DNA of 63,452 bases, filler included, from Stramenopiles sp. TOSAG23-2 (taxonomy: Eukaryota): NCBI GenBank assembly GCA_900128395.1. It is 14 parts of 14 records of this genome, joined end to end, with 100 filler letters (N's around TTAATTAATTAA, not from the genome) between each part and the next. Parts side by side here need not be neighbours in the genome. Positions count along the whole stretch, not along the records: positions 31,856 to 36,295 come from LT650897.1; 13 more parts are not named here. One strand, given 5' to 3'. Below the pieces are notes generated by a model. It saw only the letters and a list, made by a program, of their open reading frames with translations, ran no database searches and had not been told where the DNA came from. Position numbers and translations under genes: made by a program. The first letter of the stretch is position 1. Each line of letters opens with the position of its first letter. Positions 1,921-36,295 of the stretch are shown here, piece by piece.

Positions 1921-2886
1921 ATGTCAACTTTCGGCGGGTATCATGCTGTCATGTTACCACAGTCTGAGTTTAGTGTCAAACTGATGGCATGTTTACAATA
2001 TTTTAAGATTCCATATACATGGTCTTTAATGCCAAGAAATAAAAAACTATTACCAGGCCCGGGCTTGATTCCTGTATTGAAAACGCCAGATGGACAAATT
2101 ATATATGATACTATGGAAATTTTTAACTGGCTAAATGAGAATGAGGAAAGGTGTAAAGGAAAAATTTATCCGAAACATTTAGACCGAAGTATGGTAGAAG
2201 AAATTGAAGTGACGTGTGAGATTGTATATTGTCACTCACAATTTATATTTTCACGAAAAGAATATTTTGATAAATGCCAATACGAGAAATGGGATGACTT
2301 TTTGAAAACACAAAATTGCTTGATACGCTGTTTACTCAGTGCTAGAAAAATTCAACAAAAATTTGAAAAAGCTATACCAGAAATGATTAAAGATAAGATT
2401 GGCTATGATAGTATAGACTTTGAAAATCCAACCAAAGGCTTTCAAAAAACGATGGAAATTTTTGAGTCAATATTAAAAAAAAATAAAGGACAGTATTTAC
2501 TTGGCAATACGGACGGACCAACTGCTCCAGATTTTGCATTATACGGTATGCTTGTAAAGCTTTTACCACCTGGATTTATGGGCTTTATGCCTACCCTTTA
2601 CGAAAATATATCAATATTGGCGGATCCAAACAATGGAAATCCTTATAGATTGCTTCAAAAGTGGCATGAAAACATGGCTTCAATTAGTAATTTTAATAAC
2701 GATTCCTGGACAGATGTTTCATTAACTGTTACTCCAGAACGTCCAAATATCAAATTTATTACAGAACCTTTTGGTACACCAGAAAGTACTATTATTCAAT
2801 TCGATCCGAAGAAACATGGAAAGCGTGTGTTAAAGCATATTGACCACGATACTGTAATTTCTAAATTTGGCGTATCGGATTTTTAG
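1921..2886 (+). CDS. Glutathione S-transferase-like protein
   Basis: N-terminal thioredoxin-like GST motif (SEFSVKL...GLIPVLKTPDGQIIYDT) and C-terminal YLLG..PTAPDFALYGML. Confidence 0.75.
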   Translation: MSTFGGYHAVMLPQSEFSVKLMACLQYFKIPYTWSLMPRNKKLLPGPGLIPVLKTPDGQIIYDTMEIFNWLNENEERCKGKIYPKHLDRSMVEEIEVTCEIVYCHSQFIFSRKEYFDKCQYEKWDDFLKTQNCLIRCLLSARKIQQKFEKAIPEMIKDKIGYDSIDFENPTKGFQKTMEIFESILKKNKGQYLLGNTDGPTAPDFALYGMLVKLLPPGFMGFMPTLYENISILADPNNGNPYRLLQKWHENMASISNFNNDSWTDVSLTVTPERPNIKFITEPFGTPESTIIQFDPKKHGKRVLKHIDHDTVISKFGVSDF

Positions 2887-3393
2887 GTGAAATATAGATA
2901 TAATTATATATAATATATACGAGTATATATATATGATATGTGTAATTGTTAAAGATGTTTAGAGAATATATATAATGAAGGTTGAGAATATATTTTATTA
3001 TAATTTTCTCTTAATCATACTCATAGATATTGTAATATATATACGAGTATATATACACTGTTTTCGTACGACGGACATATAATATATATACGAAAGTATA
3101 CATATTTATTTTTATTTATGATAATAAAAATATTGGTTTAACATGACCGAAATATTTTAATTTAAAATTTTTTATTTTAAAAATATCAAAATGTAAAATA
3201 TTTAATTCAAAAAGTATTTTTTATGTAATACGACGTAATTTTTACTAAGTATGATATTTATTTTAATTTATGATACCCACATGATAATTCTTACGCGCCG
3301 TACTCTTCAAAAGAATACAATAACTGAGAGGCAATAATATCTATCGCACACTATGATAATATGCATAATATGGTATAAAAGAGTATTATCTAT

Positions 3394-4446
3394 CTATTTC
3401 GCTGCATCAACTTTGACATTTTTATCAAGGCCACCAGCTGCCATTTTTGATCCCCCAGCAGTTGATGAATGTATCTTTGTTAAATCACCAGTATATGCTT
3501 CATACCACATTAACAGAATTTCACAAAATCCAATAACAGCTAAAAAATAAGTCGCTTTCATATTGGCACGGTTTTCAGATTTAACAATCGATGCATTCAA
3601 TGAACGTACCATGAAAAATGCCATGGATAGCCCAGTGTAAATCAATGTTGGATAATACATCCACCAACCGAATAACAAAGCTACTATCATGTTTATGCAT
3701 AGCCCAACATATTTATAACCTGTATATGCGCCTAATTCAAACAATGATAAAGTTTCCAAATTAAACATATACATACCACCACGTATAATAATAATTTCAA
3801 GCAATTGACTCATCATAGCTGAGACAGCGACATCGTATAAAACTTCTGGGGTAAAACGCATGCTTTGTCCTTTCAGTAACCCGATGATAAGGACAAATGT
3901 AAACAGTCCCATGGTTGGAATGTATAAATCTGGGCAATTGATATCTTTTGATGGTGGTAAAAAATTAAAATCTGTATTTTTTGCACCATCTTGGTAACCA
4001 GATGTAACACGTTTCCATGCTTTGACACGAAATGGAAATAATAAACGACCAAGCTTATTAAATACCATTTTATTCTGAACATTGAAATAATATTTCAAAG
4101 ATCTCCACATAACAATAAAGCCTGGCATATATTTAGCAAAAGTAGATTCGCCCATGGTACGAGCGTATTTTATTCCAGCATCGCGTACTAAATTATTCAT
4201 CTCGTTGCCGTTATTATTACCATTACTCCCGGCATTCAAAGCAGCATTTGCAAACGAGTCAAATGCATTTGCATTCCAGTTATTTGCCCCACCCTGTTGC
4301 TGTGGTACATTCATTGATTGTTGCTGCTGTGGAATTTGAGTTTGTTGTTGTGGTACTTGTTGAAAATTACCACCATACCCTACATTATTTGCACGTTGAT
4401 GTAGATTCTTTGCATTCGCATTTGTTTTTGGAGTTGGATATTGCAT
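3394..4446 (-). CDS. YIF1: YIF1 family ER-Golgi trafficking membrane protein
   Basis: LKYYFNV..KMVFNKL..LLFPF, PPSKDINCPDLYIPTMG, FTPEVL and AYTGYKYVG motifs; multiple TM segments. Confidence 0.92.
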   Translation of the reverse strand: MQYPTPKTNANAKNLHQRANNVGYGGNFQQVPQQQTQIPQQQQSMNVPQQQGGANNWNANAFDSFANAALNAGSNGNNNGNEMNNLVRDAGIKYARTMGESTFAKYMPGFIVMWRSLKYYFNVQNKMVFNKLGRLLFPFRVKAWKRVTSGYQDGAKNTDFNFLPPSKDINCPDLYIPTMGLFTFVLIIGLLKGQSMRFTPEVLYDVAVSAMMSQLLEIIIIRGGMYMFNLETLSLFELGAYTGYKYVGLCINMIVALLFGWWMYYPTLIYTGLSMAFFMVRSLNASIVKSENRANMKATYFLAVIGFCEILLMWYEAYTGDLTKIHSSTAGGSKMAAGGLDKNVKVDAAK

Positions 4447-31750: not shown

Positions 31751-32184
31751 TAGTANNNNNNNNNNNNNNNNNNNNNNNNNNNNNNNNNNNNNNNNNNNNT
31801 TAATTAATTAANNNNNNNNNNNNNNNNNNNNNNNNNNNNNNNNNNNNNNNNNNNNTACATACACATACAATGGCAAAATTTCAAATTTGAAGTTATTTAA
31901 TAAAATTTTATACGCACGTCAGAGATATTTTTTTCCACTTGGTTGCAAAATTTTATTAGAAGTTCTTAAAAATTGGCGGAGATATCGATGTTGGCATGGG
32001 GATGTTTTTTGTCGATTTGAGCCATAGCTTTTTATTACACGAGTATATAAAATGTAAAATTATATGTGTGGTTAAAATCTAAGTTAATACGACTAACAAA
32101 TTTTTTAGTTCCCATGTGGCAAGCTTTTTTTCATTTTATAATAATACAAAAGCGTGCCAAACTCTCAGTGTAAAATATTTTTTC

Positions 32185-32288
32185 TATTCCGTATTCCGTA
32201 TTCCGTATTCCGTATTCCGTATTCCGTATTCCGTACATATATTTACACTTGGTAGCGCTACATCCAAATTCTCTATATTCTCTCCCAA
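32185..32288 (+). repeat. Left inverted-repeat arm: (TATTCCG)x7 plus 55-nt unique segment
   Basis: The unique part 32234-32288 matches the reverse complement of 36207-36261 at 52/55 positions. Confidence 0.93.
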
Positions 32289-32495
32289 GTTTCACACACG
32301 TTCAATAAACAAACTATGCATACGGCTTAAAAAGATACGTTTTGTATATATATCTTTTTTTTAAATTTCGAAAAGTTCGTTATTTATGATATAATATCAA
32401 TGATATAGATCATTTAAATGTTAGTTATGCATATATAAAGTTTATTCTCAAAATTTAATTTAAAAAAGAAAAATGTGGTGCAAAAAATATTTTTA

Positions 32496-32675
32496 ATATG
32501 TACGATGGCTTTCCCAGGTTCTTCTCATTGACATTAAAAAGCGCCAGAATGACCACCGATCAAAACAAACAAATGTTTTTTAAGCGATATTCTTGGATAA
32601 AAGCGAAGCAACAACAGAAGTACAGGAATTTGAATGGAATCCAAATATAAACTTCATTGTGCATTAGAATATCCA
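32496..32675 (-). ncRNA. Box H/ACA snoRNA; pockets fit LSU GCGAA-U-GAUUAG (yeast Psi1004-equivalent) and UUUCCC-U-CAGGAU (yeast Psi960-equivalent)
   Basis: 5' hairpin UGGAUA/UAUCCA with guides CUAAU + UUCGCUUU and H box AGAAUA 14 nt from the pocket. 3' hairpin GGUGGU/GCCAUC with guides AUUCU + GGGAAA and ACA 14 nt from the pocket. Confidence 0.78.
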
Positions 32676-32730
32676 TAATATAATATGTAAAAAAAAAATC
32701 AGAGAAAACATGTTATCTGTATATAATGAA

Positions 32731-32806
32731 TCAGTAAATGGATTTTCTACATTGCATCATGCATATAGCTTGAGCATCAAGAAGGGGAATCCATTAGTAT
32801 CATCAA
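32731..32806 (-). ncRNA. Box C/D snoRNA, guide to LSU AAGGGGAAUCC
   Basis: UUGAUGA...CUGA; 11-nt antisense GGAUUCCCCUU (32782-32792) just upstream of D' UUGA. Confidence 0.8.
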
Positions 32807-32862
32807 TTTCATTTCTCTTTTTTTTTTCTCAAACGAAGATTATATATGTATATATGTATTAT

Positions 32863-32946
32863 TGGCTTCATCATAGTAAGTCATCACCACGATATTAGTA
32901 AGACGGGTAAACGGCTAAGTTTTTTCTATAATGATATCATCAGCCA
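32863..32946 (-). ncRNA. Box C/D snoRNA, guide to LSU CGGGUAAACGGC
   Basis: Terminal stem, box C UGAUGA, 12-nt antisense GCCGUUUACCCG (32904-32915), internal C' GUGAUGA; D boxes degenerate (CUUA, AUGA). Confidence 0.72.
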
Positions 32947-33168
32947 CGATGTGGAAATTCGATATGTATCAAGTGGATGTGTGTGTCTATTATATTCTTG
33001 TTAGTTAAAATTCATCAACGATGATTATAAATGATGTAAACATATATATATATGTCAATATAAATATGAATGTAGAAATCAAGGGAGAGATATATTTCAT
33101 GGAAAAAAAAATATATCGGCATGCTTACAGGCCTTCGAACTCCCTCCACATAATTTAATTTCTTCTAG

Positions 33169-33241
33169 CTTTATTCTTCGCTTCATCCATGGCATCTATT
33201 CATCCATAATTTGAAAGACAGACGTGGCAGAGGATCAGCGG
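33169..33241 (-). ncRNA. H/ACA-type hairpin; pocket fits LSU UGGC-U-UGUGGCAG (yeast Psi2826-equivalent)
   Basis: Stems CGCU/AGCG, AUCC/GGAU, GUCUGU/AUAGAU; guides CUGCCAC + GCCA; AGAAUA box ~16 nt from the pocket; no clear second hairpin. Confidence 0.62.
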
Positions 33242-33491
33242 TATTGTGTTTTATTTATATATATAAGTAGTTATGTATAATTAGTATTTTTTACTTACAA
33301 AAATAAACATATATGTATGCATTCCATATTCACTTACAATTGTAAACGACCTTCTTGTTGTTTAATCAACAATATCTATCCAATCTATATAGCTATACCA
33401 TAAAAAAAATATACAGTTAGTATGTTTCAATTTTAATTCATTTTTTTTTTTTGATTTCAAAAGAATATATTTATATATATAGATATATGTA

Positions 33492-33624
33492 AAATGTACG
33501 ATGGCTTTCCCAGGTTCTTCTCATTGACATTAAAAAGCGCCAGAATGACCACCAATAATATTATTAATCTTGCACAAGTGCAAAGTTTAAATATGAACTT
33601 TCATAAAAAACGATCTGTTGTGCT
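33492..33624 (-). ncRNA. Box H/ACA snoRNA; 5' pocket fits LSU GUGCAAA-U-CGAUC; 3' hairpin identical to that at 32498-32557
   Basis: GCACAA/UUGUGC lower stem, guides GAUC + UUUGCAC, H box AGAUUA 14 nt from the pocket, ACA at 33495-33497. Confidence 0.72.
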
Positions 33625-33700
33625 TCTTTTATTTTTTTATTTTTTCCATGTTTTTTTATATGCCTATTATTAAAAACAGACAAAGAATTATATCATTTAT

Positions 33701-33793
33701 TCAGTGTTAATGGATAATAAGAGCAGTTATTTTCACGTTTACCAGATAATTACTTCATGGCTCAAATGACGCGCATGATAAAATTTTCATCAT
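33701..33793 (-). ncRNA. Box C/D snoRNA, guide to LSU UGACGCGCAUGA
   Basis: AUGAUGA...CUGA; 12-nt antisense UCAUGCGCGUCA (33767-33778) before D' UUGA; the D'+5 rule points to the C of UGAC. Confidence 0.85.
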
Positions 33794-34032
33794 TATAAAT
33801 TCATAATTCTAATATATATACACATGGCATTTGATGATAATTATGATATATATATATATATATATGTATGTATGCAATTATGCTGATGTACTTACAATCG
33901 AATATCTTTCGTATATAAATATATATATACATACATGCATCATGTAAAATAAATCACAACTGTTAGTTAAATTCTCTGTTTATTAAGTGTGTGTATATAT
34001 ATATATATGTAAAATCATTATAATGATATAAA

Positions 34033-34168
34033 AACTGTTGCTGCCAATTAGACCCATTAAATGTAGTATCATTTAACAGGTGAGTATGATAGAGGCTTCA
34101 ATTATTATACCTGTCATGTATGCCAAACATTGGTGGAGTATCGACAATGCAAGGAAAGTGATGCAGGA
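34033..34168 (-). ncRNA. Box H/ACA snoRNA candidate; 3' pocket resembles LSU UUAGACCG-U-CGUGAG
   Basis: Hairpin (CCUG/CAGG, CAUUG/CAAUG), H box AUAAUA, second hairpin (GUUAAAUG/CAUUUAAU; guides CUCAC + GGUCUAA), then ACA. Confidence 0.62.
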
Positions 34169-34430
34169 TTCTTCTTGTGAAAATGATATATATGTGTGTG
34201 TGTGTAGATACGTATGTTATCGTTTTAAAACTTACCATATAATGTATGTATCTCGGTTCCTTTTTATCAAATAATATTATTATTGACTTTGCCTTATACC
34301 ATATTATTCAGTTTATCCTATAGCATATCATTCTTTTCTTTATATGTATATGTATAATGTTAGTGATTTCAATTCGTATATTGCATTGTTCAAATGTAGA
34401 AATGTGTGTATATATATATAAAAGTATTAT

Positions 34431-34566
34431 AAATGTAGAGACTCCATTGGATTGATCTTCATGTTGTTTCTGAAGCCAACCCACCCATAAGAGTACTCGT
34501 TATTCTTGTCTAACTATTGACCAAAAAAGTAATAAGAAGTGAACCTTCTCGGCTTCGAAGTTGACG
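34431..34566 (-). ncRNA. Box H/ACA snoRNA; 3' pocket fits LSU GUUGGAUUG-UU-CACCCA (yeast Psi2944 region)
   Basis: Hairpin, AGAAUA box, second hairpin with guides UGGGUG + CAAUCCAAUG, then ACA at 34434-34436. Confidence 0.72.
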
Positions 34567-34664
34567 TGATTTACTATATATACATAAATCATGCATAATA
34601 AAGTGTATATATATATATGTGTGTGTGTGTGTTTGCATTGTTATTATTATTACAACAATTATTA

Positions 34665-34748
34665 TCAGTTCGGCGTCTAAACCGTTCAACGGTATAATAT
34701 CGCTACTATACCTCGTACAAGAGGTGTCAGAATTTACGCGTTCATCAT
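34665..34748 (-). ncRNA. Box C/D snoRNA, guide to LSU AGAGGUGUCAGAA (snR48-type target region)
   Basis: Terminal AUUAU/AUAAU stem, AUGAUGA...CUGA, 13-nt antisense UUCUGACACCUCU (34720-34732). Confidence 0.82.
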
Positions 34749-34853
34749 ATAATTATGTATGTGTATAATATTTTTTTTTTGTGCAAAAGAAAAGAAAGTT
34801 ACATATATTCATTCCATCAACCAAATAATGAAACAAAAAAAAAAACAAAGAGA

Positions 34854-34922
34854 TCAGTATCTTGTGGTAATATCATGCTGTTTTTAGCAGCTCTAGAACA
34901 CGGACCAAGAATAGATCATCAT
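34854..34922 (-). ncRNA. Box C/D snoRNA, U18-like (LSU AACACGGACCAAG; yeast Am649-equivalent)
   Basis: AUGAUGA...CUGA; 13-nt antisense CUUGGUCCGUGUU (34897-34909) before D' UAGA; GCUG/CAGC stem between D' and C'. Confidence 0.85.
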
Positions 34923-35194
34923 ATCGCTTTCATTTTTTTTTTTTAAATTATCATCGTTATTATTATTATTTGTTGTTCTTGTTATGAATATATACGTACA
35001 AAAATATTCTCATAACGGATCTTGGTTATGTCTACTGTAATCCTCATTGTTCTCAAAAATGTTTCCACTTTATATAAACTAAGATTTCAGCGATGGATTT
35101 CTTAATCATTGAATATTTCTTTCATTTTAATTTTTTTTGTGACAAAAAGAGATAGATATGTAGGAGGAAAGATTCATATATATTTTTCTAAAAA

Positions 35195-35268
35195 TCAGTT
35201 TCAACTATTTATGCATCATTATGTTACTTATGTCCCGAAAGATGGTTAATTAAAGTAGATATCATCAT
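35195..35268 (-). ncRNA. Box C/D snoRNA, guide to LSU CCCGAAAGAUGGU (yeast Gm805/Am807 region)
   Basis: AUGAUGA...CUGA; 13-nt antisense ACCAUCUUUCGGG (35234-35246); internal C' AUGAUG. Confidence 0.85.
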
Positions 35269-35502
35269 CTTTTATTCAAAAATATATATGGCGGCGGATG
35301 GGTATATATATATACATAGTATGTTTCAGTATGTAATACTTACTCTTTATATTGTTTTTACAAATGTAAAATGACTTTTGCTTTTTTTTTTTTATCTTGC
35401 GTACGTATGTGATAATTAAAACTATAACATATGTTAGATGGTTGTTATATTTTGTGTGTGTGTGTGTAAAAGTATTGAAAAGATATATATATATATATAT
35501 AC

Positions 35503-35640
35503 AGATGTTGAAGTTGCCACCAAGAAAATTCTATTAAAATCCAATTCGGCAGCTCACGAAGAGGCCAATTTTTCATTTTTAAAACCTTCAAACTATTGCA
35601 AACATAAACATTATTCTAGCGTTTTTTAAAAAATGATCAT
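35503..35640 (-). ncRNA. Weak H/ACA-like two-hairpin candidate
   Basis: Two hairpins (CAUUUUUAAAA/UUUUAAAAAUG; UGCC/GGCA) followed by ACA; no clean H box and no target recognised. Confidence 0.35.
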
Positions 35641-35735
35641 TATACTTTGTAATATATAAATATAATGTAGATACCAAACGCTGTGGTGGTTGTTATATAT
35701 TGAAGAAAAGAAATAAAGAAAAAAGAAAAAAAAAC

Positions 35736-35819
35736 TCCGAATGAGTAGGAGGGTAATTCTTTGAGTCGTCAGAGCAGTATGATGTAGCTACGATAGAATA
35801 CCAAATAAGTTATCGTCAT
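35736..35819 (-). ncRNA. Box C/D snoRNA with variant boxes, guide to LSU AUGAGUAGGAGGG
   Basis: Box C AUGACGA, D' CUGA, D CGGA; 13-nt antisense CCCUCCUACUCAU next to box D. Confidence 0.62.
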
Positions 35820-36013
35820 TGTTTTTTTTTCTTTTCTTCTTTTCTTCTTTTTGTTGTGTTTTGTATACACCATTTTTGGGAAAGTTTTTTTTATCAATGA
35901 AGTTGTTGTGTGTGTGTGTACGTTTGTATATATATATAGGTTCAACGTTTGTTTTTGCTTTTGTTTACTACAACGATTAATATATATATATATATATATA
36001 TGTACATATTTTC

Positions 36014-36143
36014 TCTGAATAAAATATGGTATGTTTTTCTACACGGATACATCTAAATAGTTGGATATCTCCACAAAATTTGTTGTACTTGAAGGATTCT
36101 AAACTTCGTTAAGAGGGGTGCATGGCGTGCAATTTATCATCAT
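36014..36143 (-). ncRNA. Box C/D snoRNA candidate, guide to SSU GGUGCAUGGC
   Basis: Box C AUGAUGA at 36137-36143; 10-nt antisense GCCAUGCACC (36117-36126); box D uncertain (CAGA at 36014-36017), so the 3' end is tentative. Confidence 0.45.
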
Positions 36144-36206
36144 CGAAAAAAGATATATATATATATATACATATGTAAATCCATTGTAGTAAACGTATGC
36201 AAGTGA

Positions 36207-36295
36207 TTGGGGGAGAATATAGAGAATTTGGATGTAGCGCTCCCAAGTGTAAATATATGGACGGAATACGGAATACGGAATACGGAATACGGAAT
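36207..36295 (-). repeat. Right inverted-repeat arm: 55-nt unique segment plus ~5 x CGGAATA, cut by contig end
   Basis: Reverse complement of the 32185-32288 arm. Confidence 0.93.

Follow-up and report, generated by a model that had tools for sequence, protein, structure and literature searches.

A minus-strand cluster of box C/D and H/ACA snoRNA candidates with regularly spaced splice motifs in a stramenopile genome

Our analysis confirms that a dense cluster of snoRNAs lies on one strand of a single contig from Stramenopiles sp. TOSAG23-2, and we consider it probable that the cluster comprises ~14-15 genuine rRNA-modification guide RNAs located in introns of one precursor. The layout is unusually regular for what is otherwise a well-known kind of locus, and the spacing between the H/ACA blocks and the branch-point motifs that follow them is the one feature worth following.

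The window, by which we mean the entire 63,452-nt stretch of DNA analyzed, is composed of 14 contigs of ~4.4 kb each, with linkers (N/TTAATTAATTAA) between them, and the cluster is located on the contig at positions 31856-36295 (Table 1). The preliminary description of a dense mixture of C/D and H/ACA elements, all on the same strand of a contig without ORFs, held: the elements lie where it had placed them, on the minus strand; an ORF scan of the contig found none of at least 150 aa (stop-to-stop frames reach 93 aa at most); and the (TA)n/(CA)n spacers with GTAAGT and ACTAAC are present. The snoRNA blocks form GC islands (GC content 0.346, versus 0.211 in the spacers). The rest of the window contains long unbroken ORFs in which GTAAGT and ACTAAC are sparse, which fits an intron-poor genome. 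The source organism is an uncultured marine protist, whose proteins share no more than 40-47% identity with their best named relatives.

Table 1. Positions, along the window, of the cluster, its snoRNA candidates, the splice-like motifs between them and the flanking inverted repeat.
Feature	Position	Strand	Description	Rfam match (bits; E; gathering score)
snoRNA cluster	32496-36148	minus	~3.7 kb	
CD1	36010..36148	minus	long box C/D candidate; C box GAUGAUGA; non-canonical D (CAGA)	snoZ221_snoR21b (22.4; 0.23; below gathering)
CD2	35736..35824	minus	Z105-like; C box AUGACGA, D' CUGA, D CGGA	snoZ105 (24.1; 0.85; 45)
HA3	35503..35682	minus	weakest H/ACA candidate; H box AGAAUA 35617, ACA 35508	
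TCTAAC (branch-point-like)	35433..35438	minus	70 nt after HA3 ACA; first AG 11 nt on; putative mini-exon 35421-35344	
GTAAGT donor	35338..35343	minus	70 nt ahead of CD4	
CD4	35191..35273	minus	snoR29-like box C/D; 13-nt LSU guide CCCGAAAGATGGT	snoR29 (41; 7.9e-4; 50)
CD5	35002..35112	minus	doubtful C/D-like; boxes degenerate; rRNA complement only 9 nt	
CD6	34850..34927	minus	U18/SNORD18 homologue; 13-nt LSU guide AACACGGACCAAG	SNORD18 (35.8; 3.8e-4; 41)
CD7	34662..34752	minus	snoR1-like box C/D; 13-nt LSU guide AGAGGTGTCAGAA	snoR1 (32.8; 3.6e-4; 49)
HA8	34431..34567	minus	H/ACA candidate; H box AGACAA 34511, ACA 34436	
ACTAAC branch point	34359..34364	minus	72 nt after HA8 ACA; putative mini-exon 34337-34236	
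GTAAGT donor	34230..34235	minus	67 nt ahead of HA9	
HA9	34033..34168	minus	H/ACA candidate; H box AUAAUA 34108, ACA 34038	
ACTAAC branch point	33962..33967	minus	71 nt after HA9 ACA; putative mini-exon end 33896	
GTAAGT donor	33890..33895	minus	96 nt ahead of CD10	
CD10	33697..33799	minus	box C/D; 12-nt Watson-Crick LSU guide (14 with flanking pairs) AGTGACGCGCATGA	SNORD10 (19.6; 0.43; )
HA11	33492..33624	minus	H/ACA candidate; H box AGAUUA 33570, ACA 33497	
ACTAAC branch point	33416..33421	minus	76 nt after HA11 ACA; putative mini-exon 33392-33338	
GTAAGT donor	33332..33337	minus	96 nt ahead of HA12; second GTAAGT at 33298	
HA12	33068..33241	minus	H/ACA candidate; H box AGAAUA 33177, ACA 33073	
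ACTAAC branch point	33000..33005	minus	68 nt after HA12 ACA	
CD13	32862..32945	minus	box C/D; 12-nt LSU guide (13 with G-U pair) GCGGGTAAACGGC	
CD14	32727..32812	minus	snoR60-like box C/D; 11-12-nt LSU guide AAGGGGAATCC(G)	snoR60 (24; 0.12; 40)
HA15	32496..32676	minus	H/ACA candidate; H box AGAAUA 32593, ACA 32501	
ACTAAC branch point	32420..32425	minus	76 nt after HA15 ACA; first AG 66 nt on	
Inverted repeat, right arm	36207..36295		89 nt, 97%; includes (ACGGAAT)n; at contig end	
Inverted repeat, left arm	32200..32288		(ATTCCGT)7; downstream of cluster	

Nine box C/D candidates are present on the minus strand, eight of them credible and one (CD5) doubtful, in agreement with the approximately eight that had been proposed. 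An Rfam search returned 15 matches to snoRNA families at E values up to 10, every one of them on the minus strand, and no snoRNA match at gathering score. The matches to U18 (SNORD18), snoR1, snoR29, snoR60 and Z105 are all below gathering but consistent, with boxes and guides aligned over the full length of each model. CD1 has a 5-bp terminal stem (UUUUC/GAAAA) and a 10-nt complement to the SSU (GGTGCATGGC). D' boxes are degenerate across the cluster, and the D boxes of CD1, CD2 and CD13 are non-canonical.

Guide complementarity was assessed using eukaryotic rDNA contaminant contigs (L122-L125, identified with Rfam) in place of the organism's own rRNA. Seven C/D guides are complementary over 11-14 nt, directly after the C box, to conserved rRNA in this real eukaryotic rDNA. 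The targets of the CD10 and CD13 guides occur in four of four test loci, that of CD7 shows a single mismatch or an N in these loci, and pairing of the CD2 D guide (CCCTCCTACTCATT) with the LSU in L124 needs G-U pairs. Five of the six rRNA segments quoted in the preliminary description were matched perfectly, over 11-13 nt, while the sixth (GAGGUGUCAGAA) showed one mismatch or an N in both loci that cover it. A perfect rRNA complement of at least 11 nt was found within 32 nt after TGATGA at 5 of the 10 such sites that the cluster contains versus 3 of 104 elsewhere in the window, and one of at least 12 nt at 3 of 10 versus 0 of 104. TGATGA counts on the contig are ten on the minus and one on the plus strand (CTGA, 15 and 3), and one coding contig likewise has ten TGATGA on one strand. 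It had also been claimed that all but one target is in the LSU, and indeed nine of the ten assignable targets are, the other being the 10-nt SSU match, a bias that partly reflects detectability because the test set lacks the first ~1110 model positions of the SSU.

Six H/ACA-like blocks accompany the C/D snoRNAs, where at least five had been proposed, and we regard them as candidates on the basis of layout and conservation. The 5' pocket of HA11, at 14 nt from its H box, pairs over 7+4 bp with LSU GTGCAAA-T-C-GATC, and that of HA12, at 16 nt, pairs over 4+7 bp with LSU TGGC-T-T-GTGGCAG; there were no decoy matches to set beside these two 11-bp bipartite matches under the same filters. Targets could be assigned to only these 2 of 12 pockets, with looser filters giving four real versus two decoy matches. 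Folding z-scores are modest in four of the six blocks (values include -0.5 for HA3, -1.1 for HA9, -2.1 for HA15 and -3.6 for HA8, for which 0 of 200 shuffles were equally stable). A generic hairpin-H-hairpin-ACA descriptor picked up HA8, HA9 and HA12 but is non-specific (these three matches versus 0-4 per strand elsewhere). The 3' hairpin and ACA of HA11 and HA15 are identical at 60 of 60 positions, and their flanks have diverged.

A contig from an independent metagenome source (L127) matches the cluster at 98.6% identity over 3130 columns (~3.1 kb). Only 2 of 17 substitution columns (binomial P 0.003) and 1 of 11 indel events (P 0.011) fall within snoRNA blocks, which make up 46.5% of the aligned span with boundaries that we drew ourselves, a comparison to be read with the fast mutation of microsatellite spacers in mind. 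The differences inside blocks all lie in one U-run in the apical loop of HA12 and are the sole ones within a confident snoRNA; among the variant positions listed from public runs, 1 of 32 lies in a block, namely the doubtful CD5. Strain differences are almost confined to the spacers, a pattern that, at the level of sequence, we take to reflect selection on the snoRNA blocks.

The arrangement of splice-like motifs is what points to introns. Counts on the minus and plus strands of the contig are five and one for GTAAGT (0-2 on other contig strands) and again five and one for ACTAAC (0-3 on other strands), and both motifs are ~8-11 times more frequent than in the remainder of the window. On the minus strand, the five GTAAGT donors and six (A/T)CTAAC branch-point motifs alternate strictly, the donors lie 67-96 nt ahead of the first snoRNA in their intron, and all six branch-point motifs sit 68-76 nt after the ACA of an H/ACA block, whereas none of 200,000 random placements put at least four motifs in such a spacing window. 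Between successive splice-signal pairs there are one to five snoRNAs rather than one per intron. There is no consensus donor between the branch point at 33000 and CD13, and CD13, CD14 and HA15 are followed by a branch point but preceded by no consensus donor.

These data are consistent with one long Pol II precursor in which the snoRNAs would lie within about six introns, their donors being close to perfect GTAAGT and their branch points (A/T)CTAAC, with zero to four C/D snoRNAs per intron followed by exactly one H/ACA snoRNA at the spacing given above. Short (~55-100 nt), fast-evolving, non-coding mini-exons would part the introns; none of 160 combinations of 3' splice-site choices keeps a frame open from the upstream exon. 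We infer that splicing and debranching would free the introns, that exonucleases would then shorten them as far as the outer snoRNPs, and that endonucleolytic cleavage within the (TA)n/(CA)n tracts of the spacers would part the inner snoRNAs.

The precursor probably begins in, or continues from, a gene of the CASP family (Golgi tether). Nucleotides 110-374 of L127 correspond to positions 116-188 of the 252 in the CASP_C profile (E 5.4e-4; 19.8 bits, below the Pfam gathering score of 28), and this exon ends at GTGAGT ~60 nt upstream of CD1, close to the 67-96 nt of the other donors. ORFs of two relatives, P0121 (87% identical) and P0123 (57%), end at the same point. A CASP_C exon ending in GTGAGT just upstream suggests that the host may be the final part of a protein-coding gene rather than purely non-coding. 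Of the earlier proposal of a spliced, non-coding host, the non-coding nature of the mini-exons stands; no fitting splice joint was found (see below), and the host may be partly coding. A somewhat unlikely alternative is that all 15 snoRNAs lie in a single last intron region, at least 4 kb long, of the CASP gene, with the mini-exons never included or acting as poison exons that send the transcript to decay, and with the true last CASP exon (which in homologues starts DPFKFEE and contains the membrane anchor) beyond the contig. The position of the GTGAGT would fit such an arrangement, as would the 74-95 further residues of longer CASP homologues, which are absent here. However, no downstream exon was found: 0 of 50 minus-strand frame pieces matched CASP_C in Pfam, and the best tblastn match to the CASP C-terminal exon across the window (E 0.91) is on another contig. 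In addition, the CASP link comes from one metagenome contig whose join to the shared sequence falls at a (TA)n tract and may therefore be an assembly error, and L127, a DNA contig (X2) and an RNA contig (X16) all depart from the window sequence between 36177 and 36214, with differing sequence upstream.

We consider it unlikely that the cluster is an unspliced polycistron like those of plants, yeast or trypanosomatids, in which one promoter would drive a transcript divided by RNase III-like cuts in the spacers and by exonucleases, with GTAAGT and ACTAAC unused. Processing of the mixed snoRNA clusters of plants and trypanosomatids is not known to involve splicing. Such clusters are dense, polycistronic and contain both classes in the passages of PMC2780460 that concern them; the cluster described here shares these traits but is punctuated by consensus donors and branch points. 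Contigs of three RNA runs and one DNA run contained no splice joint that fits the predicted introns, although RNA-run contigs drop rare forms and may include DNA carry-over. RNA contigs were colinear with DNA at every predicted splice site covered (donors 35343, 34235 and 33337, acceptors near 34337 and 33392), and the sole listed joint, 33648 to 34947 (side 22), matches no predicted splice site. This colinearity is what an unspliced polycistron would give. It would also suit such a polycistron that up to five snoRNAs share a single donor-to-branch-point interval, that the final three have no donor, and that the (TA)n inverted repeats flanking CD1 (I2) could make external stems. Against it stand the five-to-one strand bias and enrichment of both motifs and their order, since strict alternation and a fixed distance from the ACA would not readily be expected of motifs that are not used.

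It is very improbable that the elements resemble snoRNAs by accident, in DNA rich in AT and repeats, or that they are a decayed, non-functional pseudogene cluster: although matches below gathering, degenerate boxes, a non-specific H/ACA descriptor and unexceptional k-mer complementarity to rRNA without box context (k = 12; five matches versus 0-5 on 27 other contig strands) could be read that way, box-linked complementarity, the avoidance of snoRNA blocks by strain differences, the hairpin kept identical in two paralogues, and the presence of parts of the stretch in RNA libraries from several studies argue otherwise.

Read as introns of one precursor, the cluster resembles UHG-type host genes. 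Mammalian gas5/UHG and, according to PMC2780460, the C/D clusters I-V of Neurospora crassa carry snoRNAs in consecutive introns with canonical splice signals and have poorly conserved exons with short ORFs only; in all of them each intron has a single snoRNA, and those of N. crassa are C/D only. The cluster here similarly combines consecutive-intron snoRNAs in one predicted transcript, canonical flanking signals and poorly conserved exons, but differs in having one to five snoRNAs per predicted intron, mixed classes and an upstream exon that may be coding. Several snoRNAs in one intron, as in our predicted introns, are described for rice and Drosophila in the same portion of the literature (PMC2780460). 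Human intronic C/D snoRNAs prefer a position ~50 nt upstream of the branch point, according to the relevant passages of PMC5519232. A preferred branch-point distance is seen here as well, but it is the H/ACA snoRNA that appears position-locked, with the C/D snoRNAs further upstream. Recognition of human H/ACA snoRNAs is reportedly independent of splicing, to judge by the title of a paper on them. Schizosaccharomyces pombe snoU14/mamRNA, as outlined in PMC12508059, is one precursor that hosts an intronic snoRNA together with a second one in the 3' exon next to that intron, and offers a possible model for the donor-less CD13, CD14 and HA15.

An inverted repeat flanks the locus (Table 1). Its right arm is probably a fold-back assembly chimera outside the locus, as the departure of L127, X2 and X16 from the window between 36177 and 36214 indicates, and the contiguity of its left arm is confirmed by an independent DNA contig (32207-32486, 0 other letters).

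The minus strand of window positions 32496-36148 carries both box C/D and H/ACA elements, as the preliminary description had proposed in calling this a dense snoRNA cluster, and we conclude that the locus is a real snoRNA cluster of a known kind. There are nine box C/D candidates on this strand (numbered along it as CD1 to CD14, interspersed with the H/ACA candidates HA3 to HA15). CD4, CD6, CD7, CD10 and CD14 have canonical UGAUGA and CUGA boxes together with a terminal stem, and three more have one deviant box: CD1 and CD13 contain UGAUGA with a non-canonical D box, and the boxes of CD2 read AUGACGA and CGGA. CD5 fails to show C/D boxes of the expected form and is a doubtful candidate. Terminal stems of 2-5 bp, read by inspection without a statistic, are present in 8 of the 9 candidates (for example AUGAA/UUCAU in CD14 and UUUUC/GAAAA in CD1). 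An Rfam search of the whole window, a check suggested in the preliminary description, gave 0 matches at the gathering thresholds. With E values up to 10, contig 31856-36295 had 23 matches, 15 of them to snoRNA families and all 15 on the minus strand; the plus-strand matches (five) were to miRNA, cis-regulatory or sRNA models. The best sub-threshold matches cover the full model with boxes and guide aligned, and comprise snoR29 (41 bits, E 7.9e-4), SNORD18 (U18; 35.8 bits, E 3.8e-4), snoR1 (32.8 bits, E 3.6e-4), snoR60 (24 bits) and snoZ105 (24.1 bits), all below gathering.

Complementarity between the candidates and rRNA was assessed with a test set of four eukaryotic rDNA contigs that contaminate bacterial assemblies and are not the organism's own, fetched with a pattern of two window motifs and identified by Rfam. 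One of them (L123) covers the 3' part of the SSU, the 5.8S and LSU model positions 1-2467, and the others cover LSU positions 334-2671 (L124), 1915-2941 (L122) and 2233-3401 (L125); the first ~1110 SSU model positions are absent from the set. Guides of 11-14 nt in seven C/D candidates pair with these loci, the CD1 guide pairs over 10 nt, and in each case the guide starts 6-21 nt past the C box, with a degenerate D'-like tetramer after it. Raw complementarity does not separate the cluster from its surroundings, with five rRNA-complementary 12-mers on the cluster strand versus 0-5 on 27 other contig strands, and one coding contig is likewise rich in TGATGA. When perfect complements to rRNA were instead scored only in the 32 nt that follow a TGATGA, taking the longest at each site, lengths of at least 11 nt were found at 5/10 sites in the cluster versus 3/104 elsewhere in the window, and lengths of at least 12 nt at 3/10 versus 0/104. 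Guide complementarity is thus beyond chance in its box context, and not as raw complementarity. Several of the targets are what we take to be known methylation sites, including the U18 site, yeast 25S A649 and the target of yeast snR75, a correspondence to which we give little weight. The targets of CD14 and CD13 (window positions 32727-32945) and of CD10 (33697-33799), which are close together in the cluster, lie within ~190 nt of one another in LSU rRNA (L122 positions 214-225, 330-342 and 393-406).

Six blocks of 133-181 nt fold, as judged by folding and inspection, as a hairpin, an ANANNA hinge, a second hairpin and ACA, with H boxes AGAAUA (three blocks), AGAUUA, AUAAUA and AGACAA. Folding z-scores relative to dinucleotide shuffles were -3.6 for HA8, -2.1 for HA15, -1.6, -1.4 and -1.1 for three others and -0.5 for HA3, and a crude hairpin-H-hairpin-ACA descriptor run over the whole window was non-discriminating (three matches on the cluster strand versus 0-4 per strand elsewhere); taken alone, these structural predictions are weak evidence for H/ACA identity. 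Better evidence comes from a hairpin common to HA11 and HA15, from two 5' pockets, and from the patterns of conservation and spacing described below. The 3' hairpins of HA11 and HA15, with their ACA boxes, are identical at 60/60 positions, and their 5' hairpins and flanks are unrelated. The 5' pocket of HA11 would form a bipartite 7+4 bp duplex with conserved LSU GTGCAAA-T-C-GATC, 14 nt from the H box, and that of HA12 a 4+7 bp duplex with conserved LSU TGGC-T-T-GTGGCAG, 16 nt from the H box. Reversed and antisense decoys gave 0 matches under the same pocket filters; looser filters gave four real matches versus two decoy matches. In the partial rRNA set, no target could be assigned to 10 of the 12 pockets, among them the pocket common to HA11 and HA15.

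Features of the snoRNA cluster and its contig, in window coordinates, with the guide pairings of the C/D candidates
Feature	Position	Strand	Details
Unit 1	TCTAAC 35438	minus	CD1, CD2, HA3
Unit 2	donor 35343; ACTAAC 34364	minus	CD4, CD5, CD6, CD7, HA8
Unit 3	donor 34235; ACTAAC 33967	minus	HA9
Unit 4	donor 33895; ACTAAC 33421	minus	CD10, HA11
Unit 5	donor 33337; ACTAAC 33005	minus	HA12
Unit 6	ACTAAC 32425	minus	CD13, CD14, HA15; no donor before
HA8 ACA box	34436	minus	72 nt to branch-point motif
HA11 3' hairpin plus ACA	33492-33556	minus	common to HA15
HA15 3' hairpin plus ACA	32496-32560	minus	common to HA11
CD1 guide		minus	10 pairs; SSU target GGTGCATGGC
CD2 guide		minus	LSU site paired only via G-U pairs
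CD4 guide		minus	13 perfect pairs; target CCCGAAAGATGGT
CD6 guide		minus	13 perfect pairs; target AACACGGACCAAG
CD7 guide		minus	13 pairs, one mismatch or N; target AGAGGTGTCAGAA
CD10 guide		minus	12 perfect pairs, 14 with flanking pairs; target AGTGACGCGCATGA; 4/4 loci
CD13 guide		minus	12 perfect pairs, 13 with G-U pair; target GCGGGTAAACGGC; 4/4 loci
CD14 guide		minus	11-12 pairs; target AAGGGGAATCC(G)
(TA)n-rich tracts	35969-36015; 36145-36191		47-nt, 77% inverted repeat around CD1
Left arm of inverted repeat	32200-32288		includes 7-bp repeat (ATTCCGT)n
Right arm of inverted repeat	36207-36295		89 nt, to contig end; 97% inverted copy of left arm; probable fold-back chimera
Dispersed repeat or conserved element	31856-32026		

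A metagenome scan with a pattern of two guides returned one contig, L127, from the same species, and no more distant relative of the cluster. L127 is 98.6% identical to window positions 36177-33057 over 3130 columns, and the snoRNA blocks make up 46.5% of this aligned span. Only 2 of 17 substitution columns (binomial P 0.003) and 1 of 11 indel events (P 0.011) fall inside blocks, all in the U-run of the HA12 apical loop, in a test for which the block boundaries were drawn by the analyst and in which the spacers are rich in microsatellites. Among 32 variant positions listed for the cluster from four public sequencing runs, one lies inside a block, namely the doubtful CD5. The blocks also differ from the spacers in composition (GC 0.346 versus 0.211). 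Other snoRNAs are also surrounded by TA tracts like those around CD1, from which external stems or RNase III sites could arise.

The cluster strand contains five GTAAGT and five ACTAAC motifs, versus one of each on the opposite strand and 0-2 and 0-3, respectively, on the other contig strands of the window. These form four complete pairs of donor (GTAAGT) and branch-point motif, plus two further branch-point motifs, in strict alternation, and they divide the cluster into six predicted units. The units hold 3, 5, 1, 2, 1 and 3 snoRNAs, and hence do not follow a one-per-intron arrangement; the order of snoRNAs between successive signals means that every unit ends with its single H/ACA snoRNA. 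Measured from the first A of the ACA box, the branch-point motif lies 70, 72, 71, 76, 68 and 76 nt downstream in units 1 to 6, and the cluster strand has no [AT]CTAAC besides these six motifs. When motifs were placed at random, 0 of 200,000 trials had at least four in such a window; the range of 68-76 nt was chosen post hoc, which comes nowhere near accounting for the spacing effect. Between a donor and the first snoRNA of its own unit there are 67-96 nt. The mini-exons, short predicted exons between the predicted introns, are 55-102 nt long if the first AG is taken as acceptor, contain stops in most frames, and are among the most variable parts of the cluster between strains. In the first mini-exon, the strains differ by a 4-nt deletion (35400-35403) and a 1-nt insertion (35390) 10 nt apart, a net change of -3 that lies within a TACG repeat and is probably due to chance.

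The preliminary description had interpreted the cluster as a spliced non-coding host gene. Splicing is plausible from the layout of the motifs, and the mini-exons are non-coding: 0 of 160 combinations of acceptors stay open from the upstream exon. Parts of the cluster stretch are present in metatranscriptome assemblies from several studies. In the parts that they cover, contigs from three RNA runs (X15, X16 and X20) and one DNA run (X2) contain no splice joint at any predicted site, although a spliced form could be missing from contigs and still exist, and the sole joint listed for the four runs matches no predicted site. Instead, the donor of unit 2 is crossed colinearly with DNA by X16 record 12 and X15 record 6, the acceptor near 34337 and the donor of unit 3 by X16 record 9, and positions 33392 and 33337 by record 27 of X20, an oligo-dT run. 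Because these RNA contigs are colinear with DNA, unspliced RNA, or DNA carry-over, is present. The view that the host is wholly non-coding is possibly wrong, given a putative protein-coding exon upstream of the cluster that matches the Pfam family CASP_C.

This exon lies within the 404 nt by which L127 runs beyond the part it has in common with the window. Nucleotides 110-374 of L127 encode 'SHEEQMNLKSENIELYKRIR...KKYNNLYEETLG' and align with positions 116-188 of the 252-position CASP_C profile (E 5.4e-4), scoring 19.8 bits where the cut-off is 28; the exon ends at GTGAGT, ~60 nt before the region of the CD1 C box. The putative exon has an acceptor-like site, ttctgatatcttcaag|G, upstream and this GTGAGT as donor downstream. 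An exhaustive HMMER search identified eight relatives. In P0121 (87% identical) and P0123 (57%) the ORF terminates where the L127 exon does, suggesting a conserved intron position, and P0122 and P0125-P0128 continue for a further 74-95 residues that begin DPFKFEE or SPFQLLE and include a hydrophobic anchor. A word-index search found no longer homologues of the exon. The C-terminal continuation is absent from contig 31856-36295 and from the rest of the window: Pfam searches of 50 minus-strand frame pieces gave no CASP_C, and tblastn with the C-termini of five homologues gave no significant match in the window. Two tiny tblastn matches within the cluster (PFKF and FVCFDRWS, E 26) fall in the duplicated H/ACA hairpin and were therefore dismissed as chance. 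Since the relatives' ORFs stop at this point and the continuation is missing here, the cluster may be attached to a CASP gene that contains introns and has its last exon outside the contig; judged from one contig that is joined next to a (TA)n tract, we give this about an even chance.

Most of what is known of snoRNA gene organization comes from animals, fungi, plants and a few parasites; this locus offers a complete and compact example from an uncultured marine protist, with 15 guides in 3.7 kb and predicted rRNA modification sites for its lineage. Its near-perfect splice signals contrast with the few introns in the rest of the genome. Among the nearest known kinds are the UHG-like host genes of animals and fungi, clusters of snoRNA genes within introns in rice and Drosophila, and the mixed polycistronic clusters of plants and trypanosomatids (PMC2780460). 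Neurospora clusters I-V combine canonical splice signals with short ORFs (159-267 bp) and one snoRNA per intron, all C/D (PMC2780460), whereas here splicing is predicted, each unit holds one to five snoRNAs, and the classes are mixed. Also near are S. pombe precursors in which one snoRNA is intronic and the next lies in the adjacent exon (PMC12508059).

In the most likely reading, the locus is a snoRNA host whose Pol II precursor would be spliced at approximately six introns; trimming of the debranched introns would stop at the outer snoRNPs, and cuts within the repeat spacers would free the inner snoRNAs. The strict rule that H/ACA comes last, ~70 nt before the branch point, is the one feature of the cluster that goes beyond the routine, and together with the possible CASP host this fixed spacing is the most worthwhile part of the locus. 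Locking of position to the branch point is known for human C/D snoRNAs, which favor a site ~50 nt upstream of it (PMC5519232), whereas here it is predicted for H/ACA snoRNAs. Should the spacing stem from a coupling of H/ACA biogenesis to splicing, a mechanism hitherto linked to C/D snoRNAs would be extended. One study, going by its title, reportedly found recognition of human intronic H/ACA snoRNAs to be independent of splicing. No description of H/ACA snoRNAs locked to the branch point was found in a thin literature search. A combined proposal, in which H/ACA snoRNP formation would be coupled to splicing and dependent on position, with one H/ACA snoRNA ending each intron at the observed distance from the branch point, C/D snoRNAs stacked upstream, and an array of at least six introns carried on the last part of a CASP gene via non-coding poison mini-exons, is tentative, and we consider it rather unlikely to hold in full.

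The cluster contig differs from the others in the 63,452-base window, which consists of 14 contigs of ~4.4 kb each linked by N44-TTAATTAATTAA-N44. None of the 34 ORFs of at least 150 aa in the window (standard code) is on contig 31856-36295, and the other contigs carry long uninterrupted ORFs for ordinary eukaryotic proteins, including a mitochondrial carrier, a kinesin, an MCM-binding protein (family MCM_bind), ankyrin and MORN repeat proteins and lectin-like proteins, many with poly-N or poly-Q runs. Relatives of the carrier at 100, 86, 83, 81, 67 and 60% identity are every one metagenomic, and its best named relatives, 40-47% identical, are spread across eukaryotic groups. A budding-yeast origin, which the GTAAGT and ACTAAC motifs might suggest, was set aside in view of the ankyrin-, MORN- and lectin-like proteins on neighboring contigs and of the metagenomic provenance of all close relatives of the carrier. 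The cluster stretch itself occurs in marine and seawater metagenomes from several studies, and we treat its source as a marine protist that is uncultured and belongs to a poorly sampled lineage. As this case shows, an ORF-free contig of a single-cell or metagenome assembly can receive a snoRNA-host annotation.

An inverted repeat with one arm at the contig end brackets the cluster. L127 departs from the window at ~36177. A 730-nt DNA contig of run X2 departs at 36213 and an RNA contig of 1481 nt from X16 at 36214, and both then continue with hundreds of bases that do not resemble the window; for the left arm, a DNA contig of X2 gives confirmation. Because three independent assemblies contradict the right arm, we read it as probably a fold-back chimera of the assembly, and flagging it is of practical use. 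A terminal inverted repeat of a mobile element is the reading set aside in its favor. Neither contig 31856-36295 nor its repeat arms contain a tRNA.

A scan of viral contigs for rDNA with an rRNA-complementary 14-mer gave 120 stretches, of which the one with two guide motifs was a chance match and not rDNA. Two short pieces of eukaryotic LSU rRNA (model positions 2200-2320 and 2439-2605) lie at ~4714-5119 of L121, a 1.16-Mb contig of a bacterial isolate, and are a curious insertion or misassembly. At the end of the cluster contig opposite the right arm, positions 31856-32026 have much higher DNA depth in a seawater metagenome, occur in several distinct contigs and match a 92%-alike RNA contig; this segment is a dispersed repeat or a conserved element.
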